Source: Polyangia bacterium
GTDB taxonomy: Bacteria > Myxococcota_A > Polyangia > JAAYKL01
Assembly: GCA_050287845.1 (NCBI GenBank)
Contig: JBNKCR010000009.1
Location: forward strand, 1-52,242
Reading direction: 5' to 3'
DNA length: 52,242 nucleotides
Every line of letters starts with the position of its first letter. Within the stretch, counting starts at the first letter, position 1. Positions 32,599 through 50,469 of the stretch are shown one piece after another. Position numbers and translations under genes: made by a program. The notes under the pieces were generated by a model. The model ran no database searches, was not told the DNA's origin, and was given only the letters and a program-made list of their open reading frames with translations.

Positions 32599-33120
32599 TC
32601 AGTCTTCCGGCGACTTCTCCTGCTCCGCGCAATTGTTATCTCCGGTGGTTCCCCGCCACGAACGATAGCGACTGTGCACCCCGCGGGTCAATGTGGCGCT
32701 GTATGTTTCGAGCAATTCGATGCCATGCAGGATGACAATCACCAGTACCGACAGTTTTATGGCCGTAAATGGGGTGGCAATGGCAATGACCACGCCAATG
32801 GCCGCGAGCATCCAGATGGTCGCAGCCGAGGTGACCCCGATGACCACACCGTCCCTGGAGAGCATCACTCCCGCGCCGAGGAAGCCTACGCCGGTCACCA
32901 CCTGACCGATAATGCGGGAAGGGTCGGACTCGTCAGACATCACCGCCATGGCCGCCGCGGTGAATACATATGTGCCCAGGGTAATCAGGGAGGAGGTGCG
33001 GATGCCCACCGGTTTACCGCGCAGTTGACGCTCCACTCCGATAATGATGCCGCAGAGCAATGCGACCCCGACCGCCTCCCACTTGAATGGTTCAATACTC
33101 AACAGTTCCGAAATATTCAT
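32599..33120 (-). CDS. MgtC/SapB family membrane protein
   Basis: GIIIGVERQ..GKPVGIRT; DPSRIIGQVVTGVGFLGAG; GVTSAATIW..AAIG. Confidence 0.95.
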   Translation of the reverse strand: MNISELLSIEPFKWEAVGVALLCGIIIGVERQLRGKPVGIRTSSLITLGTYVFTAAAMAVMSDESDPSRIIGQVVTGVGFLGAGVMLSRDGVVIGVTSAATIWMLAAIGVVIAIATPFTAIKLSVLVIVILHGIELLETYSATLTRGVHSRYRSWRGTTGDNNCAEQEKSPED

Positions 33121-33142
33121 TTCACCTTCTCCTTCACATGCC

Positions 33143-33943
33143 TCAGCCCCGTCGTCGGATGGTTTTCAGACTGGCCGTCACTCCCGGTATGGTGGACAGG
33201 TAAGCCTGTCGGTACGCGCTCAACCGGTTCGGATACAGAACGCCACTCCATTCATTCATGTAGGTTTTTTTCAGCTCCACAGAGAGCACGCAGACACTGG
33301 TTGGAAAATGATTGTGAATCCACTGGCTCATCCATCCCGCACCGAACTTCACATTTTCCCGAACGTCGAGTTTTCGCCCCTGTGCGTCGTATCGCCTTAA
33401 ATCCGCGATGAACCGGTTCACCAGCTCCGACCAGTACCGACGATTCATGGTGTCTGTACCCACTTCAATTTCCGGATTCTTTTTCGGGTCATCGAACGGG
33501 CAGTCCGGTCCCCGTCGCTGATGGTTGTAGCTGTGAAAATCGAGCACCGCGACTTTGCCGTGTCGGCGCACCATATCTTCCAGCACCTCCTTGAGCATCT
33601 GATAGAACGAATCGTACTGGGAGAGGGAACGGCGAAAAATAGTCTCGTCCACCGATGGTGCCCAGACGCGAATGCCCCATGCATCTTCCGGCGCATGATA
33701 GATGGCATTCTGGCGTTCGCGATTCATGTCCATCTCAAACCGGGAACGATGTACCACCAGCCGATTGTCCGCCACCCGGGTCAGTTCACCGGTGTACGGA
33801 TCTTCCTCCCGCAGTCTGGTCTGGCTGTCCACCACCATGTTCCCGGCAACCTCGGGCCGAACGTGGTGCCCGTGATGAATGGCGGTAGCCAGAATGGGAC
33901 TGTGTCCCCGGGTAAGAGACCAGACGGTTTTCGATTCGTTCAT
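33143..33943 (-). CDS. N-formylglutamate amidohydrolase family protein
   Basis: ATAIH.GH; RLREEDPYT; SRFEMD.NR; DFHSYN; ENVKF..G; VELKK.YMNEW.G. Confidence 0.9.
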   Translation of the reverse strand: MNESKTVWSLTRGHSPILATAIHHGHHVRPEVAGNMVVDSQTRLREEDPYTGELTRVADNRLVVHRSRFEMDMNRERQNAIYHAPEDAWGIRVWAPSVDETIFRRSLSQYDSFYQMLKEVLEDMVRRHGKVAVLDFHSYNHQRRGPDCPFDDPKKNPEIEVGTDTMNRRYWSELVNRFIADLRRYDAQGRKLDVRENVKFGAGWMSQWIHNHFPTSVCVLSVELKKTYMNEWSGVLYPNRLSAYRQAYLSTIPGVTASLKTIRRRG

Positions 33944-35185
33944 TTATGTGCGCATGCCCGTCAATGCCTCCCCTGCTGCGAGGGAATGACAGAGTTGCTG
34001 TGCCAGTGCTTTCAGCGATGCAGCCGTCACCTCCCCGGTGACCCGGCGCATCCGGGTGGCGAGAGTGCCATTGTCAATAATCCATTCGGCGGCCTGTCGT
34101 TCCGCACCATAGAAATCATCGCACCGCGCCAGAATCTCCCGCCAGAGCCGCAGTCCGGAGAAGGGTTCCCGTTTTCCCGCCAGCAGATGCAGATACTCGC
34201 TGTCCCGGATGAAAAAATGCTCTCCGTGCGTCATCGCCCGATTCAGAATCCGGCGAAGGTTCTGGGTGGAAACGGCATTCATGGCCGCCAAATCGTCTTC
34301 CGCCTGCTCTACCAGCAACCGCACCGCCGCCGCCACAGCACCCATCACGCCGGCATCCATTCCCGGATGCTCCTGCACATCTATGAGTCGAATCTCAATG
34401 GCATCCCGGTCAAACCGCGCAATGGCACCTCGGGCATTGCTCCATTCATATTGCAGAACGCCTTCGGGTTCCCGCTGCTTCAACGCCCTGTACAGCGGTG
34501 CGAGGATAACATCGTGGTATTGTTCCCGACTTTCCACCGGTTCGGGGATGATGTCCCCAATGGCTTCCGGCAACCGGTTGCAATGCTGGCTGTACACCTG
34601 AAGTCTCGCATCACTGAATCCACTCTCTTTTCCGTCGAGAAATGGGGAGGCTGCCGCCAGCGCGGGAATAATGGGCAGTACCAGGCGAATGGCGGCATGG
34701 AGCCTCGCAAATTCCGCATCGTTGGCAAACGGCAGGTTCAGGTGGGCCGACTGAAGATTGAACCACCCGTGCCCCTGGCAACCGAATGTTCTGTCCAGTG
34801 CCTCATAAATGGGCGCATCCTCCAGCGCCCACAACGCCGTGTCCCGATCCGGATTCATCCAGGGATGCACGGCGCTGCCCATCAGACATCCATTCTTTAC
34901 CGACAGCAGGTCGTTGATCTGCCGGACATTCTCCACAAACGGATATCGCAGCGACGCCATATCCGCCACCGGCCCGGCCCCTTTGAGTTCAATGACATGC
35001 ATGGCCAGTTCATTGGACCACCACAGTGCACCCCGATCCACTTCCCGCGCCCCCATCGGCCCCACCTGGGAAAGCAGCCAGTCCGCAATGGGCATCACAT
35101 CAAATGTTTCCCGGTTCACAATCATGTATTCCAGTTCCATGCCGTAGGCGTCAAAAAGATGCAGTTTTCCGTTTTCAAGGTTCAT
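33944..35185 (-). CDS. Glutamate-cysteine ligase family 2 (GCS2) carboxylate-amine ligase
   Basis: GMELEYMIV; SNEL..HVIELK; HPWMNP; HGW.NLQS.HLNLPF; ASPF.DG; N.RGAIARFDR.AIEIRLID.QE. Confidence 0.92.
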   Translation of the reverse strand: MNLENGKLHLFDAYGMELEYMIVNRETFDVMPIADWLLSQVGPMGAREVDRGALWWSNELAMHVIELKGAGPVADMASLRYPFVENVRQINDLLSVKNGCLMGSAVHPWMNPDRDTALWALEDAPIYEALDRTFGCQGHGWFNLQSAHLNLPFANDAEFARLHAAIRLVLPIIPALAAASPFLDGKESGFSDARLQVYSQHCNRLPEAIGDIIPEPVESREQYHDVILAPLYRALKQREPEGVLQYEWSNARGAIARFDRDAIEIRLIDVQEHPGMDAGVMGAVAAAVRLLVEQAEDDLAAMNAVSTQNLRRILNRAMTHGEHFFIRDSEYLHLLAGKREPFSGLRLWREILARCDDFYGAERQAAEWIIDNGTLATRMRRVTGEVTAASLKALAQQLCHSLAAGEALTGMRT

Positions 35186-36657
35186 TTCGGCTCCCTCGTG
35201 ACCATCTTCTTCTGTTCAATCCGTTGCAGAAAGACGGTCATGATATGCTGATAGAGATTGTCCTGAAGCAATGCATCTTCAAGTCCCGCATCGATATTCG
35301 GATTATCATTCACTTCAATCACATAAAATCGATTCTCCACCTGTTTGATGTCCACCCCATACAGACCGCGACCAATGGGCGCTGCGGCGCGCAGGGCAAT
35401 CCGCAACACTTCATCCGGCGCCTCCTGGGGATGCAGGGTATCGGCGTCACCTTCCTGCTTACCCCCTTTATGGTCCCGCTTGACTATCTGCCAATGATCT
35501 TTGGCCATGTAATAGCGGCACACAAAGATGACCTTCCCGTCCAGAATGCCCACCCGCCAGTCGAAATCCGTGGGCAGATATTCCTGGGCAATGATCAGCT
35601 CTGACTTTTCGAGCATTTCGGTGGCTACGGTCACCAGGTCTGAAGCGGTTTCAATTTTTTTAACCCCCATTGAAAAGGCGCTGTCCGGCTGTTTGAGCAC
35701 GCAGGGCAACCCCAGCGAGTGATGAATCAAATCCACATTGTCCCTGTGCACAATCATGGTTCTGGGAGTGGCGATTCGCTGATGGTCGAGCAGCTCCGCC
35801 AGAAACACCTTGTTGGCGCACCGGATGATGGACTGGGGATCGTCGATGACCACCAGCCCGTCCGCTTCGGCATAGCGGGCAAACCGGAAGGTATGGTTGT
35901 TCACGTTGGTGGTTTCCCGGATAAACAGCGCATCAAACTCCGAAAGCCGACCAAAGTCCTCCCGGGTAATCAGCTGCACATCCAAATCCAGCTTCTGGCC
36001 TGCGCGAATGAACTTCCTCAGCGCGGCGGGATTGGATGGGGAGTCCCTGGCGTCGGGATTGTGCAGAATGGCAATGGAATATCGAAAACTCTGCAGCTTT
36101 TTCTGCCGATATCCGGCTCTGGCAAAATAGTTGCTGGCCGCCTCTTCCACAAAGTCGTGATGACTTTGGGGGATTTCGTTGATGCTGATGGGGCTGATGT
36201 TCTGCAGCGTCCATTCCTCTCTGTTCCGAACGAATACCGCCCGCAGAAAATGGGCGTGAAACCGGGTGAAGAGTTCGCGGCACAGGCGTTCGTAGCGTTT
36301 CGCCAGATTGCGACCAAAATAGATACTCAGTTCAAACCGATCTGATTTGATACCCGCCAGTGACTTCTGGACCACCTCGTGGATGGCGGCATCCGTCATT
36401 TTCACCATGGCCGGCGTATGCAGGTCCCGCAATGTGGTGATGTTGGGCACCGGTCGATGCCCCCGTGCCTCGGCCAGCAACGAAACATAATATCCCTGGC
36501 TCTGATACCGGCAGGGATACATCAGATTGAACACCCGTACGCCGGACAGTCTGGAAAAAACCGGCTCGGTGAGGTACTTCCTGGCAGAGACCACTTCGCA
36601 ATCCGGGATTTGCAGCGGCCACTTCTTCGCATTGGCGACAACCAGAAGGATTTTCAT
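35182..36657 (-). CDS. RimK-like ATP-grasp ligase with N-terminal RLAN domain
   Basis: RLAN: VFNL...RYQSQGYYVSLLAEARGH.P.P. ATP-grasp: LFIRETT, VIDDP.SIIRC.NK, VLKQPD.AFS.GV.K, QEYLPTDFDWRVG, YGVDIK, IEVNDNPNID. Confidence 0.95.
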   Translation of the reverse strand: MKILLVVANAKKWPLQIPDCEVVSARKYLTEPVFSRLSGVRVFNLMYPCRYQSQGYYVSLLAEARGHRPVPNITTLRDLHTPAMVKMTDAAIHEVVQKSLAGIKSDRFELSIYFGRNLAKRYERLCRELFTRFHAHFLRAVFVRNREEWTLQNISPISINEIPQSHHDFVEEAASNYFARAGYRQKKLQSFRYSIAILHNPDARDSPSNPAALRKFIRAGQKLDLDVQLITREDFGRLSEFDALFIRETTNVNNHTFRFARYAEADGLVVIDDPQSIIRCANKVFLAELLDHQRIATPRTMIVHRDNVDLIHHSLGLPCVLKQPDSAFSMGVKKIETASDLVTVATEMLEKSELIIAQEYLPTDFDWRVGILDGKVIFVCRYYMAKDHWQIVKRDHKGGKQEGDADTLHPQEAPDEVLRIALRAAAPIGRGLYGVDIKQVENRFYVIEVNDNPNIDAGLEDALLQDNLYQHIMTVFLQRIEQKKMVTREPK

Positions 36658-37373
36658 GTGAGAGAAACCTTTCGTTTTGCGCGCGGCTCAATAATCACAA
36701 AATTGGCATCGTACGTCATGACGCCCAGCAACATGGCGCCCAGAACCCGATCGATTGGCGCATCGTAAGCGCGCTCGGCGTAGGGGTTTTCATCGTAGGG
36801 GTCCAGAATATGAATGGTTTTTTTTTCCTGATCATATCCGGAAAGCACCACAAAATGGCCATCCACCTCTCCGTGAATGTCATCATCCTGCTGGGTCACC
36901 TGATGGGACCGTTTGGCGCGGTACAGAAACGTGGAATTCAGACCGGTCAGAATCGGGCGCTCTGATTTTAAAAATCGTCGCAGCAACTTCCGGCCCGGAT
37001 CTTCAAATTCAATGACGCCGCCGGCCCCAAGAAATTTGAGATAGGCGTCAATGGCATTTTTCTGCCTGGATGTACCGGTGGCTCTGCGCCGCAAACTCAG
37101 CTTCTCCGGAATATCCACCCCGGGAAGAAACCAGGTGGGATCGAACACCATGAGGTTGTAGGTGAAAATGGTGGCGCGGTATCCCCGCTGGAGCGCATGA
37201 TTGGCGAGCATCACTCCGAGGGTACCGCCCCCTTCCAGGGAAGGCACTTCGGCAATGACCTGCGAAAGCGAAATGGGGTCGCCGAAATACCGGTACACCG
37301 CATGCAGACAGGTGGGCCCGCAGGTGGTGCTGTCGGGTTGCGGCAGCATTTCGAGTCTCAGTTGTTTTTTCAT
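36654..37373 (-). CDS. Papain-like cysteine peptidase (C39-like), standalone
   Basis: QPD.TTCGPTCL (catalytic Cys), GHFVVLSGYD (His), ILDP (Asp); ATGA overlap with the RLAN gene. Confidence 0.88.
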   Translation of the reverse strand: MKKQLRLEMLPQPDSTTCGPTCLHAVYRYFGDPISLSQVIAEVPSLEGGGTLGVMLANHALQRGYRATIFTYNLMVFDPTWFLPGVDIPEKLSLRRRATGTSRQKNAIDAYLKFLGAGGVIEFEDPGRKLLRRFLKSERPILTGLNSTFLYRAKRSHQVTQQDDDIHGEVDGHFVVLSGYDQEKKTIHILDPYDENPYAERAYDAPIDRVLGAMLLGVMTYDANFVIIEPRAKRKVSLT

Positions 37374-37385
37374 CTTTTTCCCCTG

Positions 37386-38345
37386 TTACCGTCCGATTAT
37401 CAATGCCATATATATGCCAAAAAGCGTCAGCAGGAGAAGCGATTCCCGTCGACTCACAACCATGCCAGTTCGGATGATGGGCAGCAGCAACAGCGAGAAC
37501 GCCACCATCCACAAATTGTCCCTCGAAATGATTTCATCCGGAACAGGAACCGGGGTCACCGCGGCGGTTACACCACCGATGGCCAGCACGTTGAAAATAT
37601 TGGAGCCGATAATATTCCCCACCGCAATATCATCCCGTTTGCGCCATGACGCTACCACGCTGGTGATTAACTCGGGCATCGAAGTGCCCGCGGCCACGAT
37701 GGTCAGGCCAATAACAGTCTCGGATACTCCGAAATTCCGGGCAACGGCTGTGGCACCAAGGACCAGAATATGGGCCCCGAGAGCCAGAAGTCCAATACCG
37801 AGGAACACTGCGACAATGTGAATCACCATTCTTGTCCCGGGTGTTTTTCCAAAGGGAATCGTCGTTAAATCCCCTGTGCCATGCAGTGCCTCCGGGGTCG
37901 CATTCACTCTGGAAACCCAGATGCTGTACGACACGAACGCCACCATTCCGAAGATAAAAAAACCGCCCTCCACCCGGTCGAGAAGCCCATCCCGGGTCAG
38001 CAGGAAAAAGAGTGCTGCTGACAGCATCATTGCCGGCCACTGCAACCGCACCGCGTCCCCTTCCACCCGCAGGGGGGAAATCAGCGCGGCAATGCCCACA
38101 ATCGCAGCAATATTGAAAATGTTGGAGCCCACAATATTGCCCACCGCCAACCCGGACTGTCCCTGAACAGCGGATTGAATGGACACCACCATCTCCGGCA
38201 TGGACGTGCCCGCAGCCACAACGGTCAACCCCACCACAGCAGGAGAAATGCTGAGTTGCAGCGCAATGCCGCAGGCGCCACGAACCAGGACGTCACCCCC
38301 AAGAAGAAGCAGCGCGAGACCACCGACAATCATTATCCAATCCAT
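37386..38345 (-). CDS. Calcium/sodium antiporter, CaCA family (YrbG-like)
   Basis: Two alpha-repeats GLTVVAAGTSMPE...GNIVGSNIFN and GLTIVAAGTSMPE...GNIIGSNIFN. Confidence 0.96.
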   Translation of the reverse strand: MDWIMIVGGLALLLLGGDVLVRGACGIALQLSISPAVVGLTVVAAGTSMPEMVVSIQSAVQGQSGLAVGNIVGSNIFNIAAIVGIAALISPLRVEGDAVRLQWPAMMLSAALFFLLTRDGLLDRVEGGFFIFGMVAFVSYSIWVSRVNATPEALHGTGDLTTIPFGKTPGTRMVIHIVAVFLGIGLLALGAHILVLGATAVARNFGVSETVIGLTIVAAGTSMPELITSVVASWRKRDDIAVGNIIGSNIFNVLAIGGVTAAVTPVPVPDEIISRDNLWMVAFSLLLLPIIRTGMVVSRRESLLLLTLFGIYMALIIGR

Positions 38346-38380
38346 CAGAAACAGACGTCCTTTCCGTCCTTGACGCCGAC

Positions 38381-38396
38381 TGCCATATTCATGCCA
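38381..38396 (-). promoter_or_regulatory. Putative sigma-54 -24/-12 promoter for the antiporter-peptidase-ligase operon
   Basis: TGGCATGAATATGGCA (GG-N10-GC), 36 nt upstream of the start codon. Confidence 0.6.
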
Positions 38397-38492
38397 CCAT
38401 CGCCCTGCGGCAAGCAGGGCATGAGAACGGGGATTCTGTCAAAAGGTGTAGCATGTTGACCCACCGTGGCATAATGACACAGAAATTTCGAC

Positions 38493-39293
38493 TCAGGAGG
38501 CCATCTCCGGCAACAGGTTTTCTTTGCGGAACGCGTCCAGCACCCGATCGGTCACATCTGATTCAAACGCTTTTTCCTTACGGGCATCGTACACATACGC
38601 CTTTGCCACAATCTCCACCAGCACATGCCCCTGCCCGGTGATTCTGCTTTTCACCAGTGTGGTCATCGGTTTGCCCAGGTACAGGTACTTGGATGCCAGC
38701 ACCGCATCATCCACAATATCCCGGGCGCGCCTGTGGTCTGCCTTCGGCGACAGATAAAACGACATCACCACCATACAGTCCAGGGCGCCCGCATTGGCGC
38801 TGGCCACCGGTTCGGTCAGAAATTTGTTGGTGGGAATCGACACCAGATTATCATCCAGGGTCACCAGCCGCACCGTGCGCAGTCCGATTTCGCGAACCTC
38901 CCCATAATAGCCGCCAAACGAAATCCGATCCCCCACCTGAAACGGTCGGGTAAACAGAATGGCCAGCCCGGCCATGAACGACGCCGCCACATCTTTCAAC
39001 GCAAACCCGGTGGTGACCGCAATGGTGCCGGAAAGAGCCAGCAACGCCTCGGACGACAGGGTGAACAGGCTGGTGAGGGCCATGATGAACGCCGCCAGAT
39101 ACACCAGAAATGAAAGCAGGGTATCCAGCTGTTTGATGGTCAACCGATGGGAGGCCATCCGTTCACTCAGGGTGCGCATTCCCCGGCGGGTGATTCGCAT
39201 GGCAACGAATGCCCCCAGTATCCACGCCAGCGCCCAGGGGATGGCGCCCGGATTGAACGATTGCATGATATTTCCAGTTCCCGCATCCGGCAT
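38493..39293 (-). CDS. Small-conductance mechanosensitive channel (MscS family)
   Basis: GFALKD...S..AG..IL..RPFQVGDRI..GG.YGEV.EIGLRTVRL.T.DD..V.IPTN. Confidence 0.95.
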   Translation of the reverse strand: MPDAGTGNIMQSFNPGAIPWALAWILGAFVAMRITRRGMRTLSERMASHRLTIKQLDTLLSFLVYLAAFIMALTSLFTLSSEALLALSGTIAVTTGFALKDVAASFMAGLAILFTRPFQVGDRISFGGYYGEVREIGLRTVRLVTLDDNLVSIPTNKFLTEPVASANAGALDCMVVMSFYLSPKADHRRARDIVDDAVLASKYLYLGKPMTTLVKSRITGQGHVLVEIVAKAYVYDARKEKAFESDVTDRVLDAFRKENLLPEMAS

Positions 39294-39296
39294 GGG

Positions 39297-42200: not shown

Positions 42201-42893
42201 CGCGGCATCGTATTCGGTCAATTGCCGCTGATACGCCTCCAAGTCCTGCTGATGTCTGGCCAACGCGTCATCGTAGGTCTGCCATGCATTCCAGGCATCC
42301 TGCCATTCCTGCGATCGTTTTGGTGTCAGCTTCCCCTTCGGTCGTTTTACTGCCGGGGATTCCGGTTCTCCGGGCGCCTCCGGGGGAACCGGCGCCTCCG
42401 GAGGGGTATTGAAAGAGTCCGGTTTTTCCGGTTCGGGAAACTCACCGGTCAGATTTTTCAGCCGCTTTTCCCTGTCTTCCCGGCTGGACCGGAGCGTCCC
42501 GCGTTCCAGCTTCAACTGCAAAATCCGCTGTTCCACTTTATCAATGTCATCCAGGGGTACATCAAACAGCATCTGCACATCCGCATCCGCAAAAAACCGG
42601 GCCGATACCAGAGACTTCAGCTGCCGCTCAATATCCAGCAGCACCGGGTCAAGCGCCTTCTTTTCGGGAATCGGCGGTTCCGTCGGCGCCACATCCGGCA
42701 CTTCGGGTAATGGGGACAAGTCTGAATCCGTCGCCGCCGCATCGGCCGATTCCGTATCTGCCGAGTCCGCCACAATCGCATCCGAAACCGTTTGCACATC
42801 ATCCGGCGCTTCCGTGTCCTGCGCATCAACACCCCCGGCGACAATCAGACTGAGAAGCAGAATCCCCATGGGGAGAACTTTCATTTTTCTCAT
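39297..42893 (-). CDS. Large exported/membrane protein: signal peptide, acidic-Pro linker, coiled coil, multi-TM block, P-loop ATPase, winged-helix-like tail
   Basis: Signal ending VDA; heptad-rich region; about 6-7 hydrophobic helices; Walker A GEKGVGKT; Walker B VILIDE; SGGNPR; ends 3 nt before mscS. Confidence 0.85.
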   Translation of the reverse strand: MRKMKVLPMGILLLSLIVAGGVDAQDTEAPDDVQTVSDAIVADSADTESADAAATDSDLSPLPEVPDVAPTEPPIPEKKALDPVLLDIERQLKSLVSARFFADADVQMLFDVPLDDIDKVEQRILQLKLERGTLRSSREDREKRLKNLTGEFPEPEKPDSFNTPPEAPVPPEAPGEPESPAVKRPKGKLTPKRSQEWQDAWNAWQTYDDALARHQQDLEAYQRQLTEYDAAQARYTVALDAWNAQNTAYEADVSATRKKRSQTFTELQLDLETLELRSRILGLRLKYLDALHNWLKPLTAPARTAFRGLKMPRKALLETMAQTEQLQRSLAALARRLKETANRAEAGSMVGLQIKISQLAADLHQMVDSVQQRERKIEGEGKQLQQLRIDLRRQSVDVRRLILANVFHPERDRLIDAAFLEHLSDMRKAAKSWFLRDIDLNRSEYLRREILQTARNPEDVTRWSEGAALLARIKPILEKLDVQTDELNLFKEHQKQVFRREAVSVLSSLATDQTRRTAYSVSQEILSDISSDAHTLADALIRWMNERKAAVTRIPEMVREKQGIVFLVRILSAMTLLILIGFLGRRLSRPISLGIRRFSTSRLFRYRLGQLVKWAGVAEAILPTLVVGAALYAALAIVGFSVPEIKFTEVILRWLIIYRFGGRLLEGLTRRVSRGRPAFIPVSVTVADMLSGTYRKLGLVVALAAVVLEWTADWFGSGILHTLIVYTLRGWLCFWGIWVLFVWRPVVATSLAGRYATSDDRPTVGLKSVICRLAVWMNAHRAGAIFTAPAVVLLFMDWFYRLVRFLLYEGGIVTFFRARLIRRLVNTRTRNSSMPLPRTLPEQYTRAFPLYPIYDEENAVILPRRKSVENIVQQIERWKRTKQDSSLVLLGEKGVGKTTLLTLLEHQLNGKVLRYSISQKLRTEKSLVTEFATMLELGECPPVVGSIASQLNQGEERVILIDEGHNVFLRTIDGYDAYESLIRLVNVTSQNVFWVLVFNTFSFAFLNASRNRLHYFRKLHSLPTWTRDELLELISRRNRQTGFEVEFDEVLLDANRSSTGDFEVIEGAEGFFRLLWENSGGNPRVATCLWLDALTAMGENRIRVGIFSETLATDLSKMDTELLYALAAICQHENLSVAELRDALNVSVDFANFAIRFLTEYGLVEPKHTDARRHTLAPRFYPQVLKLLRGHHLLYEKE

Positions 42894-43013
42894 TTCAGTA
42901 CCCTGAAACCATTTCGTTTTTTCTGAACACCATCCGCATCCTCCCGCTGCAACGGCCAGCATGACACCCCCAATGACAAAGCAACTGTATTTAAAATGCC
43001 GTTCTGGCACGTA

Positions 43014-43029
43014 ATCAAATTCAATGCCA
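43014..43029 (-). promoter_or_regulatory. Imperfect sigma-54-like promoter upstream of ATPase-mscS
   Basis: TGGCATTGAATTTGAT (GG-N10-GA instead of GC). Confidence 0.3.
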
Positions 43030-43163
43030 CAATTTCCCGCGATAACAGGGCATCATTTATTGGGTCATTCTGACACATCCGGCATCCGGATTCCCGACGC
43101 TCTCCCGTATCCGTTATCATCCAATTTCCACGGTCCGTTTCGACGTTTCTGCGGGACCCGTAC

Positions 43164-43179
43164 TGGCATGATTCTGGCT
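43164..43179 (+). promoter_or_regulatory. Putative sigma-54 promoter for the small ORF and rimK
   Basis: TGGCATGATTCTGGCT (GG-N10-GC), ~40 nt before ATG 43219. Confidence 0.6.
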
Positions 43180-43218
43180 ATTGCGGAAATGGATGTCCTT
43201 TAAAAAGGAGCGGTTCAC

Positions 43219-43461
43219 ATGAACAACGGAAAAAAAGTAAAGACCTTCGGAATCGTACGGGAAGCCCTCTGGAAACTCATCAGAAAAATTCGCCGCTTAT
43301 TTTCAGACAAACCGGATGCCCCTGCGCCTGCCAGACAGAAAACCGCCAATACGCTCCCCATCAACCCGGGAAGAGGCAACATCCGGTGGAAGGACTACCA
43401 TCCCGAATCACCACCGCCTTCAACACCCAATCGCTCACGTGACATGAATTCTCATCGATGA
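43219..43461 (+). CDS. Small basic hypothetical protein (80 aa)
   Basis: Good AAGGAG RBS; downstream of a sigma-54 motif; amphipathic N-terminus then Pro-rich tail. Confidence 0.5.
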   Translation: MNNGKKVKTFGIVREALWKLIRKIRRLFSDKPDAPAPARQKTANTLPINPGRGNIRWKDYHPESPPPSTPNRSRDMNSHR

Positions 43462-43523
43462 CGCATCAAACATCGTCGATAGATGGATTCATCCGGTGAA
43501 CGGACAGGAAGAGAAAGAACAAT

Positions 43524-44432
43524 ATGATTTTGCATATGCTTGTATTTACAAAACTGGACGCATTGTCCGCCACCACCCTCAAAGCCCACGAATTGATGCT
43601 GGACGCCGCGGAACGTCATGGGCACGAACTGCGCATATTCAGTGACTGCGATTGCCAGATGATATTTGGCAGTAAGCCCCGGATTGTCATCCGGGACATG
43701 CAGGTGGAAGACATTCGCGTTCTGTTTGTTCGAGCCAACCTGAGCGGCGCCAAACTGCAGTTTCGAAGAACCATCATCAAGCAATTCGAGCTCATGGGAA
43801 TTCATGTCATCAATCGGGAAGAGGCCATCATGAACGCCAAGAACAAATTGCGCAATCTGCAGGTGCTCACCGAACACAATATCCCCATTCCCAAAACCTG
43901 CGTAGTCAGCCATTCGGGCAATCTCGACAATACGCTGCGCGACTTCGGACGTTTTCCCATCATTCTGAAAACGCCATCGGGTTCTCAGGGAAAAGGCGTC
44001 GCCATCATCGAAAGCAAACGGGGACTCAAATCGGTGATAGAGATGTTCGACAACGGCGAACCCATCGTACTGCAACAGTATGTCAAGGAGTCGAGCGGCA
44101 AGGATATTCGGGTATTCGTTGTTGGAAATCAGGTGGTGGGCGCCATGAAAAGAGAGACCACCCAGCGGGGCGAGTTCCGATCCAACTTTCACCTCGGCGG
44201 AAAAGTGTCAATGACCGAGTTGAGCGATCATGAAAAAACCCTGGCCATGGCGGCAACCAAAGCCTGTGGTCTCGACGTGGCCGGCGTGGATATTCTGCGC
44301 ACCAACGATGGTCCCAAAGTCATTGAGGTGAATGCCAATCCGGGCCTGGAGGGGATTACCCAGGCTACCGGAATCGACATTGCCGGCGCCCTGATTCGGT
44401 TCATGGCCGGCAATGCCTGGACCGCGTCATAA
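43524..44432 (+). CDS. rimK: RimK family alpha-L-glutamate ligase (ATP-grasp)
   Basis: A.NKLR.LQ.L....IP.PKT; P.ILK...GSQGKGV; QQYVKES.GKDIRVFVVG; GEFRSNFHLGG; GLDVAGVDILR...GP.VIEVN.NPGLEGI. Confidence 0.93.
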   Translation: MILHMLVFTKLDALSATTLKAHELMLDAAERHGHELRIFSDCDCQMIFGSKPRIVIRDMQVEDIRVLFVRANLSGAKLQFRRTIIKQFELMGIHVINREEAIMNAKNKLRNLQVLTEHNIPIPKTCVVSHSGNLDNTLRDFGRFPIILKTPSGSQGKGVAIIESKRGLKSVIEMFDNGEPIVLQQYVKESSGKDIRVFVVGNQVVGAMKRETTQRGEFRSNFHLGGKVSMTELSDHEKTLAMAATKACGLDVAGVDILRTNDGPKVIEVNANPGLEGITQATGIDIAGALIRFMAGNAWTAS

Positions 44433-44456
44433 CGCCGATTCACGACGCAGCCATGC

Positions 44457-45314
44457 TTACTTCAGAAAATAGAGCAGGATTTCAACGGCGATGAGCACAA
44501 TGATAATCCACTCCAGGAAAGCGGAGTGTTTGTGATATTGCTCAGAGGCCAGCATACTCAGCAGCCCCTGAATGGTGGCCAGCTTCCTGTTCAGAATCTC
44601 GACTCTCGGCGTAAGGTCCAGATATTTGGCCAGTTTCTGATACAGCGGTTCCAGTTCGGGATAGTTCCAGAAAAACTCCGGCGTATCGAGCAGATTGTAG
44701 TGCAGGGTGATGTCGCTGCCCGTATCGAACAGGATGCCTCTGAGCTTGGCCAGGTTGCGTCTGCTGAGCGGAACTTTTCCCGTGCGGGCCAACTGTCGCG
44801 AAATATGGGCGTTCTGCTGAATCACCTGCCACGCTTTGTCTTCAAAAAACTCCAGTTTGGCCGCCTGGGCAAACGCATGGCTCAAAGCGAGGCTGCTCAA
44901 CGTATCCTGTTGTGGTATAACCAGCAGGTCATCATGAATACCAAAGTCGCTGGTTGAATCCACATGGTAGGCATACTGCTCAATGGGGGGTCGTCTGAAG
45001 TAATCCTGAATCAGTCCTTTTAATCTGAACACCAGTTGCTGCCGATCATTCTCGGACTGATTCCAACTGACCAGCACCCCATATTCAAAGAGCCATACGT
45101 CAGCGCCATTGAATCGGATATACCAGGCGTCCCGGTAGCGAATCGCTCCCAGTCCGGTGATCAGAATCGACTCTTTCTCTTCTTCCACCAACTGTGTGCC
45201 CAGCAGCGAAATGGTAATCCGCTTGCTGTCAGCCGTCTCTCCGTTTCCCATTTTTTCAGTGTCCAAACTGCTTTCTTCCTCTCCGTTCCCAAAAAAATCG
45301 ATTACCTGTTCCAT
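44457..45314 (-). CDS. RMD1 family protein (DUF155/YagE-like)
   Basis: F.YGVLV.W; ALSHAFAQ.AKL.FFE; LLDTPEFFW; YLDL..RVEILN.KL; LEWIIIVLI.VEI. Confidence 0.92.
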   Translation of the reverse strand: MEQVIDFFGNGEEESSLDTEKMGNGETADSKRITISLLGTQLVEEEKESILITGLGAIRYRDAWYIRFNGADVWLFEYGVLVSWNQSENDRQQLVFRLKGLIQDYFRRPPIEQYAYHVDSTSDFGIHDDLLVIPQQDTLSSLALSHAFAQAAKLEFFEDKAWQVIQQNAHISRQLARTGKVPLSRRNLAKLRGILFDTGSDITLHYNLLDTPEFFWNYPELEPLYQKLAKYLDLTPRVEILNRKLATIQGLLSMLASEQYHKHSAFLEWIIIVLIAVEILLYFLK

Positions 45315-45361
45315 TGGGGAAATAGCGGAATTTCACACAGGTATCGACGGGCCATGCCGGG

Positions 45362-45377
45362 AGCGATTTCCATGCCA
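45362..45377 (-). promoter_or_regulatory. Putative sigma-54 promoter for the RMD1 gene
   Basis: TGGCATGGAAATCGCT (GG-N10-GC), 48 nt upstream of the start. Confidence 0.6.
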
Positions 45378-45601
45378 TATTTCATCCGGAGCGGCTTTGC
45401 ACCCTGCACATGATACAATATTCATTGTGACCGATGATCTGATACGGTACCACTCCATCCGCCGTGTCCATTTGTCCCGCTGTGTAAAAATGACACCGTA
45501 TTTCGCAGCCGGATTCAAAATACTCATCCCAGAAGTATATCCGGATATTGACATCTTGAGATTTCTTATCGCACCGTGCTAAAAGCCCGTACAGGTGAAG
45601 T

Positions 45602-46765
45602 ATGTACAACAAAAAAAAGACGCAGGTGGCCGGAAGCCGAAAAAAAGCGTTGCGCCGTCAGTTCGATGCGCTCCTTGAACAGGTGCAGACCACCCGTGTT
45701 CACTTCAGAAATGTGGTTGAAAAAAATATTGATGGCATCGTTCTGTTGGGAGATGACAACCACATTCTGTACCTGAATCCCGCTGCCGAGAACCTGTTTG
45801 ATGAGGCACGCAAGGATCTGATTGGACAGGTCTGGCCGTATGGGGTTCCCCTCGAAGATCCGTTCGAAACCGTGCTGCGCCACCATGCCCCGGAGCGCTC
45901 CGTGGAGATGCGCGGCGTGAAAACCGAGTGGGAGGGCGCACCGGCAGTGCTCATTTCCATTCGGGACATCACCGAACGGATGGAATCCGAAAAGGCAATT
46001 CGCCAGCTCAACCAGGAACTTGAAAACAAAGTGGCCCGGCGAACCGAGCAGCTCGAAGCCCTCAACCGCGAACTCGAAGCATTCAATTACGCGGTCTCTC
46101 ACGACCTTCGTACACCGCTGGCGCGAATCGATGGCTATGCATCGCTGCTGATTTCCGAAATGGCGGGCAAACTCGATGCGGACAACGCACACTTTCTGCA
46201 GCGAATCCGCGCATCCGTCACCCAGATGGTGGAACTGACAGACGGGTTGCTGCAACTGTCCAGACTGACTCAACGCCCCCTGGAGCCCACCCCATTCTGT
46301 TTAAGCACCCTGGCCGAAAATATCCTTGAGACCATGCGCCAGGATGAACCCCAACGCCGGGCGGAATTCACCGTTCAACCCCGCATGAACGTCTGCGCCG
46401 ATTATGTGCTCATCCGCGCCACCATGGAAAATCTGCTATCCAACGCATGGAAGTTCACCCGGAATACCGACATCACCCGAATCACCGTGCAGAGCCTCGA
46501 AGGAACAGATGAAACAGTCTACTCCGTTACAGATAACGGGGTTGGATTCGATATGAACGAATCATCCAGACTGTTTCAGGCGTTCCAGCGGCTGCACAGC
46601 GACGCCAGGTTTCCCGGAACCGGCATCGGGCTGACCACCGTGCGTCGCATCATTCACCGGCATCAGGGGCGGGTCTGGGCGAAATCGGAGCCAATGGAGG
46701 AAACCACGTTTTTCTTCACGTTGCCGGCCAGCACCCCGGGGCCGACTGCCCCGAATACCCATTGA
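45602..46765 (+). CDS. PAS sensor histidine kinase
   Basis: PAS ..RDITER; H-box FNYAVSHDLRTPL; NLLSNAWKF; DNGVGF; FQRLH; GTGIGL. Confidence 0.95.
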   Translation: MYNKKKTQVAGSRKKALRRQFDALLEQVQTTRVHFRNVVEKNIDGIVLLGDDNHILYLNPAAENLFDEARKDLIGQVWPYGVPLEDPFETVLRHHAPERSVEMRGVKTEWEGAPAVLISIRDITERMESEKAIRQLNQELENKVARRTEQLEALNRELEAFNYAVSHDLRTPLARIDGYASLLISEMAGKLDADNAHFLQRIRASVTQMVELTDGLLQLSRLTQRPLEPTPFCLSTLAENILETMRQDEPQRRAEFTVQPRMNVCADYVLIRATMENLLSNAWKFTRNTDITRITVQSLEGTDETVYSVTDNGVGFDMNESSRLFQAFQRLHSDARFPGTGIGLTTVRRIIHRHQGRVWAKSEPMEETTFFFTLPASTPGPTAPNTH

Positions 46766-46785
46766 TCCCCGGGCTTGAGACGCGT

Positions 46786-47211
46786 TCAGTTTTTCTGCAT
46801 CATCACGGCACGCTGGACCGTTGTCAGAAGAAGCAGCAAATCGAACGGCTTTCCAAGAACATTGACTATCCCCAGTTGCCGGGCCTGGGTCAACACATCC
46901 GGACTTTTATCCGAGGTAATCAGAACGGTTGGAAACCTCGCAATGAATTGATGATACCTGAAAAGCACTGGCATCACCGACCCATCGGCCAGTTGAATGT
47001 CGGAAACAATCACATCGAACGACCGTTTGCGGGGCAGGGTTTTTTCCAGGGCGGCAAGATTCTCCTGCATCTCCACCGCACACGTGATTTCATGCACCGC
47101 ATGCCCTTCCCGCACCAGCGAATGATTGAGTATGAAACGCAGTTCCGCATCATCTTCCGCCAGCAGAATGGAGTAAGGACGCCCCGGTGACATCGTGTGT
47201 GAAACGCTCAT
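46786..47211 (-). CDS. Single-domain response regulator
   Basis: ILLAEDD; DVIVSD; LITS; KPF. Start 47211 or 47193, given the promoter at 47224. Confidence 0.88.
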   Translation of the reverse strand: MSVSHTMSPGRPYSILLAEDDAELRFILNHSLVREGHAVHEITCAVEMQENLAALEKTLPRKRSFDVIVSDIQLADGSVMPVLFRYHQFIARFPTVLITSDKSPDVLTQARQLGIVNVLGKPFDLLLLLTTVQRAVMMQKN

Positions 47212-47223
47212 GGCCAGGAACAA

Positions 47224-47239
47224 AGCAACTGCCGTGCCA
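47224..47239 (-). promoter_or_regulatory. Consensus sigma-54 promoter
   Basis: TGGCACGGCAGTTGCT, an exact TGGCAC-N5-TTGC match, immediately upstream of the response regulator. Confidence 0.8.
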
Positions 47240-47281
47240 CCGGCAAAATGTTCCTATCGCGCAGCAAGCCGGTGGAATGCC

Positions 47282-48640
47282 CTACTGTGCCATGCGCTCC
47301 AGTTTGCGGTACAGGCTTTTGCGTTCGATGCCGAGTACCCTGGCGGCCTGGGCCTTGTTCCCCCCCAGGATGGTCAGCACCTTCCGGATGTACCTTTTTT
47401 CCAGCTCATCCAGGGTGACCAGCTCCACCGTATCATCATCGCGAACAATCCGTTGAAGACTGTGCGCATCCGCAATCCGCTCCGGCAGGTCAGCGGATGT
47501 GATTTCGCCGGCATCGCAGAGGGCCAGGGCCCGCTCAATGCAGTTTTTCAGTTCACGCACGTTCCCGGGCCAGGGATACGTCAATAACTTTCTGGCGGCA
47601 TCATGGCTGATACCGGTCACTGCGCTGCCCATCCGCTCTGCCATCTGTTCCACAAAATACTGGGCCAGCAGCAACACATCCCGCCCCCGTTCCCGCAGGG
47701 GCGGCAACTCCATGTGCAGCACATTCAATCGATAATACAGGTCTTCGCGAAACCGCTTTTCGGCCACCGCCAGGGCGATATCCCGATTGGTGGCGCTGAT
47801 AATCCGGGCATCAAACGTCATCTCCCGGGTGGCGCCCACCGGCCGGAATGTTTTCTGCTCCAGCACCCGAAGCAGCTTGCTCTGCAGCCCCACCGGCATG
47901 TCTCCGATTTCGTCGAGAAAAAGTGTCCCCCCATGGGCACGCTGCAACAGTCCGGAATGGTCGGCCCGGGCATCGGTGAACGCCCCCCTTACGTGTCCGA
48001 ACAATTCGCTTTCCAGCAGATGTTCCGGCAATGCGGTGCAATTGATGGCAACAAAAGGTCCATCCTTCCGGTTGCTTTGCCGGTGAATGGCCTGGGCCAC
48101 CACTTCTTTTCCGGTACCGCTCTCTCCGGTGATCAACGCGGTCACATCCGTTGCCGCAGTTCTGGAAATCAGGGCAAAAATTTTCTTTATCTTCTCACTG
48201 TCCCCGACAAATCCGGGCATCGCAGTCTGTTTGTCACTGAGCAGCAATTTCAACGAATTCAATTCGTGTTTGAGCCTGCGGGTTTCCACCGCCCGGTTGA
48301 GGGCAATGACCAGAATCTCCAATTCAATGGGTTTGGTGATAAAATCCGCCGCACCGGCGCGCAGGGCGGCAATGGCCGTTTCCATGTTTCCATAGGATGT
48401 AATGACCACCACCGGAAGATCCGGCCACTGGGCGCGGACATGGGACGCCAGCTCAATCCCGTTGCCATCGGGCATGTTGACATCGGTCACCACCGCATCG
48501 AACGACTGCCGGCGCAATGCATCCACCGCCGTCTTCATGCTGAATGCCGACGCCACATCGAACCCCCGGGTTCGCAGCTGTCTGGCCGCAATCGTGCACA
48601 ACTCCTCATCATCATCTATCAGAAGAATTCGCGTGTTCAT
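47282..48640 (-). CDS. Sigma-54-dependent response regulator (NtrC family: REC-AAA-Fis HTH)
   Basis: REC ILLIDDD..D.NMP..KP; GESGTGKE; ESELFGH.RGAFTDA; GGTLFLDEIG; FREDLYYRLNV; WPGNVREL; GNK..AARVLGI.R.SLYRKL. Confidence 0.98.
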   Translation of the reverse strand: MNTRILLIDDDEELCTIAARQLRTRGFDVASAFSMKTAVDALRRQSFDAVVTDVNMPDGNGIELASHVRAQWPDLPVVVITSYGNMETAIAALRAGAADFITKPIELEILVIALNRAVETRRLKHELNSLKLLLSDKQTAMPGFVGDSEKIKKIFALISRTAATDVTALITGESGTGKEVVAQAIHRQSNRKDGPFVAINCTALPEHLLESELFGHVRGAFTDARADHSGLLQRAHGGTLFLDEIGDMPVGLQSKLLRVLEQKTFRPVGATREMTFDARIISATNRDIALAVAEKRFREDLYYRLNVLHMELPPLRERGRDVLLLAQYFVEQMAERMGSAVTGISHDAARKLLTYPWPGNVRELKNCIERALALCDAGEITSADLPERIADAHSLQRIVRDDDTVELVTLDELEKRYIRKVLTILGGNKAQAARVLGIERKSLYRKLERMAQ

Positions 48641-48719
48641 GAGAGAGGCATTACCAGATTATGCTTTACCAAAACAGTGAAATATGCGGCGCCCAAAGGA
48701 ATGCTCCCGCCGCCAAAGG

Positions 48720-49280
48720 CTATTTGGCCTTGCGCCCCATCGTCCGCCATCCGGTGCGCGGCGCTGCCATCGGCCGCAGGGTGTATCCCGCATCAGCGCT
48801 CTCCACCACCACAAAACAGTTTTCATCCATCGCCCGTGCTTTCGACACCAGCTGCCTCACCTGTTTTCGGGGCACTTTGGCATACAGCAGCGAAATGGGA
48901 CCATCCTGTCCCTCTCCTTTCAATTCGGTCAGCGCAAACCCATCCGCACGCAGCGCCGTGGCTACCTGCACACCAGTGCGGGTAAACAGCATCACCGATT
49001 TGTCCCCCACGGCCAGCCACTTTTCAATGGTCAGCCCCACAGCGCTGCCGGTTGCAAATCCAAGGGCGTAAAATATCGACAGCAGCGGCTGCTCCCGTAC
49101 CCCCCCAATCACCTCTGAAACCACCCATATCCAGATAAGGACCTCAACGAATCCCAGACACCACGAAATGAATCGGCTTCCCCGCACAATGAACAGGGTC
49201 CGGAGGGTGCCCAGCCCCACATCCACAATTCGCGCAAAAAAAATGATGGTCCCGCTGATAAGTAAAGAATGTGTCAACAT
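48720..49280 (-). CDS. UPF0316 (DUF5698/DUF2179) membrane protein
   Basis: IFFARIVDVGLGTLR; LGFVEVLIW; YALGFATG..VG..IE; G..TE..GEG..G; D...FVVV. Confidence 0.9.
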   Translation of the reverse strand: MLTHSLLISGTIIFFARIVDVGLGTLRTLFIVRGSRFISWCLGFVEVLIWIWVVSEVIGGVREQPLLSIFYALGFATGSAVGLTIEKWLAVGDKSVMLFTRTGVQVATALRADGFALTELKGEGQDGPISLLYAKVPRKQVRQLVSKARAMDENCFVVVESADAGYTLRPMAAPRTGWRTMGRKAK

Positions 49281-49296
49281 AACACTCGCATATGAA

Positions 49297-49312
49297 AGCA
49301 TAATCAATGCCA
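49297..49312 (-). promoter_or_regulatory. Putative sigma-54 promoter for the UPF0316 gene and possibly the NtrC-type activator gene
   Basis: TGGCATTGATTATGCT (GG-N10-GC), 17 nt upstream of ATG 49280. Confidence 0.6.
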
Positions 49313-49561: not shown

Positions 49562-50356
49562 ATGACCGATGAGACCAGACATCCGAATTTCAAAGATATT
49601 CCCAATGCTGCGCGCGTATATGATTACGTACTGGGCGGGAGTTGCAACTACGATGCCGACCGTCAGGCCGCGGAGTTCATGCTCAGCCTGGTACCATCCA
49701 CCCGCAAATGGGTGCGGTATTTGCGAAATTACCTGCACGCCACAGTCAAACAGCTCGCGGCAGAAGGATTTGACAGGTTCCTGGACCTTGCTTCGGGATT
49801 ACCCACCGAAGAGCACATTCACACCACCGCCCCCCGGGCGAAAGTGGTTTACGTGGATATTGACCCGTTGGTGGTCCAGACCGGTACCGAAATCATCGGA
49901 AACCATCCCAACGCGCGCTACATCGAAGCGGATGTTCGAAACATCGAAGAAATCCTGGCGTCCCCCATTGTCCGGGAGATGGTTGGAGATGGCAGCAAGG
50001 TGGCGGTGGGGTTGAACGCAGTTACCTGTTTTCTGACAGAAGCCGAAACTCAGAACATCATGCATTCGCTGTATCAGTGGGCGCCGAAAGGAAGCAAACT
50101 GTACGCCACATTTGAAACCAAAATCCCGGATTTGATGTCTCCGGGGCTACAGCAACTCATTGATACCTTCGCGCAGATGGGCAGTCCCTACCATTTTCTG
50201 ACCCTCGAAAAGTCCAGAGAATTGGTTCATCCATGGATGACGGATGCAAAAGGATTTCAGCCTCTGGCCAGGGTACTGGGCGTTGAAAGCGAAATCACCG
50301 ACGCAGACAGAGAAGGTGTGGGGTTGGAGTTTTACGGCGCTGTCCTGCAAAAATAG
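49562..50356 (+). CDS. SAM-dependent methyltransferase, Methyltransf_19 (DUF574) type
   Basis: PNAARVYDY.LGG..NY.ADR; G...FLDLASGLPT; A.VVYVD.DP.V; ADVR; ends YGAV..K. Confidence 0.9.
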   Translation: MTDETRHPNFKDIPNAARVYDYVLGGSCNYDADRQAAEFMLSLVPSTRKWVRYLRNYLHATVKQLAAEGFDRFLDLASGLPTEEHIHTTAPRAKVVYVDIDPLVVQTGTEIIGNHPNARYIEADVRNIEEILASPIVREMVGDGSKVAVGLNAVTCFLTEAETQNIMHSLYQWAPKGSKLYATFETKIPDLMSPGLQQLIDTFAQMGSPYHFLTLEKSRELVHPWMTDAKGFQPLARVLGVESEITDADREGVGLEFYGAVLQK

Positions 50357-50469
50357 TTGACTGACTGTAGAATTCGCATAAGGGAAATGACTTACACCGT
50401 TTATTTACAACATTTGGCCGGTAGAAACTTAAGCAGATTTTGCCGTGCAGCAGGTTGAGGAGGTTCCCG

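Follow-up and report, generated by a model that had tools for sequence, protein, structure and literature searches.

A probable sigma-54 regulon of three units, with ligase genes and a shared palindrome, on a mosaic island of a Polyangia genome

Do the ligase, hydrolase, transport and regulatory genes that crowd about 17 kilobases (kb) of a Polyangia genome form one sigma-54-controlled system, or do only some of them belong together? The genes lie at positions 32599–49312 of a stretch of 52,242 nucleotides (nt), which was analyzed whole and is called the window (the entire contig C9); its genome (G000) is 7.17 megabases (Mb) and 96% complete, and we compared it with three genomes of the same genus (G001–G003; G003 is 95% complete) and with loci from more distant organisms. 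A sequence-only reading had proposed a single regulon, marked by a GG-N10-GC motif at most transcription units, that makes and recycles one glutamate-rich product and links it to ion transport and a mechanosensitive channel; all 14 genes that it named are present, and profile searches place them in the Pfam families as given. Our verdict is that a genus-level regulon is real and sits on a mosaic island, its product and signal being predicted. Specifically, we favor (probability about 0.6) a small regulon of three units under one NtrC-type activator, likely a salt or ion stress response, with the ATPase-MscS pair standing apart.

Three promoters and their palindrome

We counted motifs in 3807 upstream segments of G000, using genes from our own crude gene model. 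The loose GG-N10-GC motif occurs at background frequency (2557 upstream matches vs 2320–2529 at six wrong spacings; ~3 per kb) and was ruled out as regulon evidence. The strict motif, TGGCAY-N7-GCW, gives 69 matches vs 9–19 at six wrong spacings, that is, it is enriched ~5-fold genome-wide; six strict sites lie between 37419 and 49312, the top count per 12 kb in the genome (five other places have 4–5). Five of the seven transcription units are headed by a strict site 28–63 nt before the start (the CaCA operon, orf80-RimK, RMD1, the receiver gene and UPF0316), so the motif proposed for most units holds in its strict form and fails as originally written. Judged by their sequence, the sigma-54 sites in the window are credible; because the genome, which encodes one rpoN, also encodes 38 sigma-54 activators, the sites alone do not make one regulon. 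The elements of the three promoters that we consider co-regulated are as follows.

38381..38396, minus strand: sigma-54 site TGGCATGAATATGGCA for the operon CaCA-C39-RLAN-GCS2-FGase-MgtC, 51 nt before the CaCA start
38447..38481, no strand: tandem palindrome of two 17-mers at a spacing of 18 nt, with 3 and 2 mismatches, the best tandem site in the genome
43061..43077, no strand: palindrome TGGGTCATTCTGACACA with 1 mismatch, the genome's only intergenic site with at most 1 mismatch
43164..43179, plus strand: sigma-54 site TGGCATGATTCTGGCT for orf80-RimK, 55 nt before orf80 and kept at 54 nt in the G001 homologue
45362..45377, minus strand: sigma-54 site TGGCATGGAAATCGCT for RMD1, a strict motif
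45463..45497, no strand: tandem palindrome with 5 and 2 mismatches, located between the RMD1 and PAS kinase genes, the second-best 18-nt tandem in the genome

The enhancer-like element shared by these promoters is the palindrome TGTGTCA-N3-TGACACA, whose consensus was first picked by eye from upstream regions of the window and the relatives; its distance to the promoter is 68 nt at the CaCA operon, 86 nt at orf80-RimK and 103 nt at RMD1. Because each promoter has a sigma-54 site and the same palindrome upstream, the three units are likely one regulon, and we hold their co-regulation via this sequence element to be highly probable. A search of 1.04 Mb of intergenic sequence in G000 returned nine sites with at most 2 mismatches; three are in the window, each near a strict sigma-54 site, and the remaining six have no strict sigma-54 site within ~250 nt. 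Conversely, a palindrome with at most 2 mismatches is absent 30–250 nt upstream of all 66 strict promoters on other contigs (the best has 3). Only two 18-nt tandems with at most 7 mismatches occur in the genome, both in the window. The palindrome total at spacer 3 is not above that at other spacers, so the signal is the location of the sites and not their number. In an unbiased test with all 7-mer palindromes at spacers 0–7, a palindrome common to the three regions emerged with 5 mismatches summed over them, in an inner register of the same motif; control triples drawn from 40 of the 66 other promoters never reach 5 mismatches (0/1500; the best is 6, three times, with the triples overlapping).

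The regulation is of a known kind; what is new is the palindrome at three promoters and the membership of the regulon. In the part of the published account of the sigma-54/enhancer-binding protein regulons of Deltaproteobacteria (Desulfovibrio) that we draw on (PMC4641369), the -24/-12 consensus (tGGcacg..tTGCt), an inverted-repeat enhancer that is mostly no more than 100 nt from the promoter and targets near the activator gene all have their likeness here, and the spacing of our palindromes agrees with the published enhancer–promoter distances. The palindrome-bearing promoters differ from that consensus in being mostly relaxed at -12 (TGGC, TCGC); this palindrome, the 18-nt tandem and these targets are absent from that part of the account, the regulon tables of which could hold a similar motif. 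Over the window and its relatives, GTGC also occurs at -12 in palindrome-bearing promoters, and the receiver-gene promoters, which have no palindrome, carry the canonical TTGC.

Three further sites were found in the window.

47224..47239, minus strand: near-consensus sigma-54 site for the receiver gene, kept in G002
49297..49312, minus strand: sigma-54-like site before UPF0316, the weakest of the set, with no upstream palindrome match
37404..37419, minus strand: sigma-54-like site inside the CaCA 3' end, 46 nt before the C39 start, with no palindrome nearby

The receiver-gene promoter has no upstream palindrome match (best 6 mismatches), nor does its G002 counterpart. No sigma-54 site precedes the UPF0316 genes of the relatives (0/3); in the window, a two-mismatch palindrome (49270–49286) overlaps the start codon that UPF0316 likely uses, downstream of the sigma-54-like site of that gene, and may be a chance copy or a downstream site. 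The site within CaCA may be a by-product of the FGIYxA codons of that gene; the end of the G002 CaCA gene holds a counterpart, though another gene follows there. The ATPase-MscS unit has only a variant sigma-54 site, with GA at -12, and no canonical site was found upstream of the ATPase gene here or in the available upstream stretches of four relatives; its proposed place in the regulon is thus not borne out. The gene for the NtrC-type activator lacks a sigma-54 site of its own and lies behind UPF0316 on the same strand. From the single regulon first proposed, therefore, the CaCA operon, orf80-RimK and RMD1 stay; the ATPase-MscS, PAS kinase, receiver and UPF0316 units, which lack either the promoter or the upstream palindrome, do not.

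The palindrome and its candidate activators in the genus

Searched genome-wide in G001–G003, the palindrome gives eight sites with at most 1 mismatch vs three with a reversed-pattern control; four are at known island promoters, two are coding, one is intergenic without a promoter and one is new. The new site, found in G003 from the motif alone, lies before a KamA-Ddl-Ddl-HDAC-GNAT operon, 72 nt from the operon's sigma-54 site; the G002 orthologue of this operon has the same signature and runs on into C39. (The loci with this operon are L141:3353-8999, L231:5439-11112, L243 and L035:3305-8962; it is absent from G000.) Six of the ten tabulated promoters of the relatives have a palindrome with at most 2 mismatches within 30–220 nt. 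In G001 these are the promoters of C39 and of a lipoprotein-like gene that lies behind the activator; in G002, those of KamA..C39, of CaCA-APC permease and of the unit that runs to RMD1, a nitrilase-family gene and MgtE; in G003, that of KamA. The tandem is also kept in G002, both before CaCA and, at the matching place, before the PAS kinase gene. A separate exact-match search over 21 genomes of the family matched only in G003; it missed G000–G002 too, that is, the pattern was too strict.

Which protein would bind the palindrome? The window encodes three regulatory proteins.

45602..46765, plus strand: soluble PAS histidine kinase, with no sigma-54 site facing the gene
46786..47211, minus strand: stand-alone receiver protein (PF00072)
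47282..48640, minus strand: NtrC-type enhancer-binding protein (receiver, AAA+ and helix-turn-helix domains), the candidate activator, 1 of 38 in the genome

In a quick tree of 38 rows, this adjacent activator falls into an eight-member clade (support 90 in the Shimodaira–Hasegawa-like approximate likelihood ratio test, SH-aLRT) with its G001 and G002 orthologues, a paralogue in each of G000, G001 and G003, and two activators that neighbor RLAN cassettes in other families; five further activators near RLAN loci fall outside this well-supported clade. The three paralogues sit with a receiver gene beside an FGase-GshB fusion and a MATCAP-family peptidase. In G000 this paralogous island (C126:45472-52882; also L213, L214) has a kinase and, at 50100–51536, the activator, a sigma-54-led receiver gene, and the divergent FGase-GshB fusion and MATCAP-family peptidase; weaker palindromes (3–5 mismatches) lie between its genes. 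The paralogue has its own membrane kinase, and near the adjacent activator there are only the soluble PAS kinase and the receiver.

On sequence grounds, the adjacent activator, the C126 paralogue or both may bind the palindrome. We envisage that a kinase phosphorylates the activator, which is probably the adjacent protein (47282–48640) and, with distinctly lower odds, the C126 paralogue; there is a strong case that the activator would then bind TGTGTCA-N3-TGACACA, often as two copies 18 nt apart, and open a sigma-54 promoter 50–100 nt away. The adjacent protein can no longer be named as the sure regulator: the genome has its 38 activators, one of them a close paralogue, and no orthologue was found in G003.

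The three units and their predicted output

The genes of the three units are the following.

37386..38345, minus strand: CaCA (YrbG-type) cation exchanger, encoded at the head of the ligase operon (TIGR00367, 240 bits vs cut-off 180)
36654..37373, minus strand: papain-fold C39-like cysteine hydrolase (PF13529)
35182..36657, minus strand: RLAN plus ATP-grasp ligase with the RimK/LysX fold and a divergent substrate loop (PF14401, E 1e-43)
33944..35185, minus strand: GCS2-family carboxylate-amine ligase (PF04107, E 5e-27)
33143..33943, minus strand: N-formylglutamate-amidohydrolase-family hydrolase (FGase; PF05013, E 1.5e-21; under the HutG equivalog cut-off)
32599..33120, minus strand: MgtC/SapB-family membrane protein with the membrane domain alone, encoded at the end of the ligase operon (PF02308, E 4e-29)
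43219..43461, plus strand: orf80, a basic, proline-rich 80-amino-acid (aa) protein with the motif RGx(I/V)RWKDYHP, overlooked in the sequence-only reading
43524..44432, plus strand: RimK-family alpha-L-glutamate ligase (TIGR00768, 239 bits vs cut-off 143)
44457..45314, minus strand: RMD1/DUF155 protein with one C-terminal membrane helix by hydropathy (PF02582, E 6e-44)

The first six genes are co-oriented with gaps of 12 and 22 nt and otherwise overlap or abut, so we read CaCA to MgtC as one operon. Neighborhoods of RLAN-RimK, COOH-NH2 (GCS2) ligase and peptidase genes were reportedly predicted in 2009 by Iyer, Abhiman, Burroughs and Aravind; the core order C39-like, RLAN-ATP-grasp, GCS2, FGase is common to those neighborhoods and to the window, where CaCA heads the operon, MgtC ends it, and the sigma-54 site and the shared enhancer-like element are added. 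Our literature search found no experimental product for the RLAN cassette, and no paper on the cassette or the palindrome by title or abstract.

The earlier count of two RimK ligases holds for the plain one only. The RLAN protein scores 70 bits against the cut-off of 143 for the RimK family (TIGR00768) and has HWQI at the position of the RimK FRSN (HWQ is invariant in 58 rows), that is, it is not a RimK orthologue; the fold is shared. In a model with a mean predicted local distance difference test score (pLDDT) of 87.6, residues 193–482 match LysX, ArgX and RimK at Z 25–26.5 (LysX 3vpd: Z 26.5, root-mean-square deviation 2.2, 265 residues aligned), and the ATP/metal-binding residues K283, K322, D436, E448 and N450 are invariant in the 58 rows. 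The C39-like protein has an invariant Cys-His-Asp triad and oxyanion Gln (Q12, C18, H173 and D191 in 44 rows), and its alignment to solved C39 domains includes the Cys and the His. By sequence features, the nearest eukaryotic look-alikes of its family are the GUCD1 proteins (score 0.95); a reading as phytochelatin synthase found no support, no such chain being among 18 PDB sequence matches. The GCS2 protein is under all YbdK/GshA cut-offs (best 54 vs 176 bits) and has a Pfam GCS2 match only. The MgtC-type protein, the gene for which also adjoins the cassette in G001 and G003, has 173 aa and is under both NCBIfam MgtC cut-offs (81 vs 214 and 76 vs 255 bits), so its family stands and the suggested link to low magnesium is weak, the form being short and membrane-only.

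The plain RimK keeps EFRSN (invariant in 8 rows), is under the S6-ligase equivalog cut-off (207 vs 331 bits) and looks like an ordinary S6 or poly-Glu ligase. Glutamylation of S6 by RimK requires a terminal EE; ribosomal protein S6 of G000 (C133; L259:1228-1848) has an acidic tail of ~60 residues that ends in EE. In the parts of the accounts that we draw on, RimKs glutamylate S6, at its C-terminal end, or make poly-Glu (PMC11957051, PMC11957791). Compared with the RimK/RimB systems of Pseudomonas and Escherichia coli in those same parts, the window enzyme keeps the family score and EFRSN, with an S6 that ends in EE, and it differs in lacking an adjacent rimB or rimA, in being preceded by an 80-aa gene and in having a sigma-54 site at the head of its unit. 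Of 40 relatives, two have an orf80 homologue (L134:1140-1370 and L031:8705-8926, each behind a sigma-54 site): in G001 it precedes RimK, and in G003 it and the C39 operon are divergent. In all three genomes that have it, orf80 is next to an ATP-grasp gene; it has no Pfam family and no usable match in Atlas, and so far appears limited to the genus. With one ligase that resembles S6 or poly-Glu enzymes and another without the RimK glutamate motif, the idea of a single glutamate-rich product is not sustained.

Elsewhere the cassette varies. In our RLAN survey (tblastn, E 1e-8; 108 loci, of which the 105 outside the genus total 1.86 Mb, with uneven taxon sampling), C39, GCS2 and FGase all flank RLAN in 53 loci and none of them does in 41. 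Of the latter, 13 were inspected: six have an N-terminal extension and three a small neighboring gene, with a Pfam GNAT domain in one of each, which suggests that an acetyl cap could replace the GCS2 step.

Assembled from these families, the predicted chemistry is that GCS2 would make a gamma-glutamyl amide or cap, the RLAN enzyme would add a residue, and the papain-like and FGase-like enzymes would trim or recycle the product, a small N-capped peptide and no long Glu polymer; we regard this as an even bet. It is rather likely that the plain RimK would glutamylate S6 or make poly-alpha-Glu, as known RimKs do. The CaCA exchanger and the MgtC-type protein would adjust cations. The most likely trigger is salt or ion stress because transporters and an aminomutase-GNAT pair are under or beside the signature (for the pair, the relevant part of PMC3543383), and as a specific claim, salt or cation imbalance stays tentative, slightly below even odds. 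The part of that account on the AblA/AblB pathway to N-epsilon-acetyl-beta-lysine, an osmolyte, has its likeness in G002 and G003, where a lysine aminomutase and a GNAT are under the same palindrome; the KamA operon differs in two extra Ddl-like ligases and a deacetylase and is missing from the window's genome. Co-occurrence of the KamA-Ddl module with RLAN (5 of 23 genomes vs ~3 expected, by eye) was unpersuasive.

The main rival for the output accepts the regulon and makes it a protein-tagging system of a starvation or stationary-phase program, in which RimK and the RLAN ligase would add residues to S6, orf80 or acidic-tailed proteins and C39 and FGase would remove them. The S6 terminus is the end at which RimK adds glutamates according to the part of PMC11957051 cited above; likewise, the RLAN fold is closest to LysX and ArgX, which are carrier-protein enzymes (Z 26, tied with RimK), orf80 keeps its ATP-grasp neighbor, and the paralogous activator is beside a MATCAP-family carboxypeptidase. 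Set against these points, no carrier or target gene is conserved across the 108 cassette loci (open reading frames of at least 90 aa; a short peptide gene would be missed), and orf80 occurs in this genus only. Small molecules are the usual substrates of GCS2 and KamA-type enzymes. We judge tagging unlikely, and still the strongest competitor to the small-peptide reading.

The island, its other genes and what the regulon means

The 17 kb is not a conserved system; its arrangement is specific to G000. It sits upstream of ruvA there, and different genes precede ruvA in G001, G002 and G003, so the placement is specific as well; gene order is shuffled within the genus, with the G003 pieces on separate long contigs. 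The GC content of the island is 0.555 vs 0.520 for the genome. The RLAN genes of two Sedimentisphaerales (L034, L035) are 70–78% identical to that of the window and other members of the window's phylum ~50%, which suggests transfer of RLAN between phyla. One of the two, L035 (Planctomycetota; RLAN 78% identical), has the cassette, MgtC, the KamA module and MATCAP-GshB together, so such islands may move between phyla; its RLAN and C39 are each split by a frameshift, and a search there for the palindrome found none.

Several observations weigh against a palindrome-marked regulon. The consensus was drawn from the window's and the relatives' own sites, so several counts are partly circular, and wrong tandem spacings likewise yield 0–1 tandems at up to 7 mismatches. 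Because that consensus comes from the same genomes, and because these relatives are not independent of one another, we do not put co-regulation higher. Among the relatives' promoters, the palindrome is missed at G001 orf80-RimK and G003 orf80 (a sigma-54 site, with 5 mismatches at best upstream), at the G002 receiver gene and at G003 C39 (a strong tandem, 476 nt from the promoter); in a prospective test, the G001 KamA operon had neither a sigma-54 site nor the palindrome. In G003, no orthologue of the adjacent activator was found (the best match, 56%, is the paralogue), though the sites are present. At up to 2 mismatches, the four genomes have 99 sites vs 63 in the control, mostly noise; of 15 regions picked from the 99, 12 are coding, two are intergenic without a promoter and one is a chemoreceptor promoter. 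In the last (G001, L244:4951-5137), the gene is preceded by a pair of similar palindromes, spaced by 20 nt, and by a sigma-54 site; given this look-alike, which is possibly the site of a different activator, the palindrome may not be exclusive to this gene set. A search for the palindrome was negative at two other Myxococcota-level loci and at two loci from Planctomycetota, and of 28 same-phylum RLAN loci only 2 have a strict-type site no more than 300 nt from C39 or RLAN. For salt as the trigger, the argument is one of association. Sigma-54 control as a general rule for RLAN cassettes was itself rejected; among 42 C39 loci, only two same-genus ones score at least 23.

These points also favor a second rival, in which the island is a loose set of independent modules with real sigma-54 sites that different activators serve, the palindrome being either coincidental or a generic Fis-type or nucleoid-protein site: the many activators, the misses at G001 KamA, G001 orf80 and both receiver genes, the chemoreceptor look-alike and a gene order shuffled in every relative would all be expected. 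A generic site should not be absent from 66 of 66 other strict promoters, however; the palindrome also tracks the same gene set through rearrangement, predicted a new member and goes unmatched in 1500 control triples. We consider this rival improbable, and keep the three-unit regulon.

The remaining genes are the channel pair and UPF0316.

38493..39293, minus strand: small MscS channel (PF00924)
39297..42884 (frame open to 43010), minus strand: protein with a signal peptide, long helical arm, membrane helices, an ORC/Cdc6-like AAA+ ATPase and a winged helix (PF13401)
48720..49280 (likely start 49280), minus strand: UPF0316/DUF5698 membrane protein, the gene for which the relatives carry apart from the other island genes

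The ATPase and MscS genes are a separate, widespread two-gene module on the same island: MscS is in 30 of the 32 loci of our ATPase survey (29 of them outside the genus). The best Foldseek matches of the ATPase model (pLDDT 84) are ORC/Cdc6 proteins (E 7.5e-7). The pair resembles the large MscS channels MscK and MscM in that a long helical arm on the extracellular side and further membrane helices are encoded immediately ahead of the MscS core, and differs in being two unfused genes, the first of which encodes the ORC/Cdc6-like ATPase and winged helix; no MscK chain is among the Foldseek matches listed (P-loop ATPases), the query being the model that includes the ATPase. A literature search found no paper on MscS paired with a STAND or Cdc6-like ATPase. 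Judged from its sequence context, the channel appears to be a neighbor only, with no sign of regulon membership. Elsewhere, the pair lies between CorA and a MATCAP / FGase-GshB / USP block in another family (L167:5634-17046), and G001 has a second, broken fragment of it (L136:10187-10853).

The transport genes had been expected to keep company with the RLAN ligases, and they do not. The 105 RLAN loci outside the genus contain the ATPase, CaCA and UPF0316 in no case, MgtC in one, MscS in two, RimK in three and RMD1 in four (by looser clustering, MscS is at 7 of 108), and RLAN is in none of the 29 ATPase loci outside the genus. Of 300 genomes of the phylum, counted by eye, 39 have RLAN and 115 have the ATPase domain; 16 have both vs 15 expected, and the two share a contig in 0 of 15 genomes with listed places, many of these assemblies being fragmented. 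The last rival, that the whole 17 kb, MscS, ATPase and UPF0316 included, is one system that makes, recycles and releases or balances a glutamate-rich peptide through channels, has in its favor that the cassette, in what appears to be one operon, has CaCA on one side and MgtC on the other, that the pair adjoins island-type genes in G001 (MgtE, nitrilase) and G046 (CorA, FGase-GshB, MATCAP) and that the palindrome at 43061 is 31 nt from the -12-variant site facing the ATPase, and is the least probable of the three given these counts, the lack of sigma-54 sites upstream of the relatives' ATPase and UPF0316 genes and the scattered G003 pieces.

Outside the island, GC content is low (0.40–0.44) in a block (15569–22480) that encodes a methyltransferase, an acyltransferase, DUF5360 and a fusion of AMP-binding, carrier and aminotransferase parts; going by its gene content, the block resembles an acquired cluster for an aminolipid or small metabolite. 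A 516-aa protein without a Pfam or NCBIfam match (29284–30834) is encoded directly behind ruvB in G001–G003, where it is 67–72% identical. A tRNA search of the window found none. Assembled contigs of one sediment RNA run, from a relative ~90–98% alike, touch 30 of 30 bins, with strand, starts and levels not readable.

The reach of the three-unit regulon is limited because it is seen in one uncultured genus only. The RLAN cassette occurs in many phyla, and the palindrome that it shares here with CaCA, RimK and the lysine-aminomutase operon of the relatives is the first regulatory clue that we found for it; it supplies an exact DNA site, two candidate activators and a set of conditions, namely salt, Ca and Mg. 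The MscS channel and its ATPase should be treated as a module of their own. In a broader reading, which we hold to be a long shot, one activator clade would run an 'amidoligase stress program' via one palindrome, in which RLAN-GCS2, KamA-Ddl-Ddl, RimK and the paralogue's GshB-MATCAP-FGase are unrelated orphan cassettes that serve as interchangeable outputs, together with Ca, Mg and Na transport, and which would make new peptide compatible solutes or cation buffers; if this is true, the palindrome would be the first physiological handle on three long-predicted pathways.

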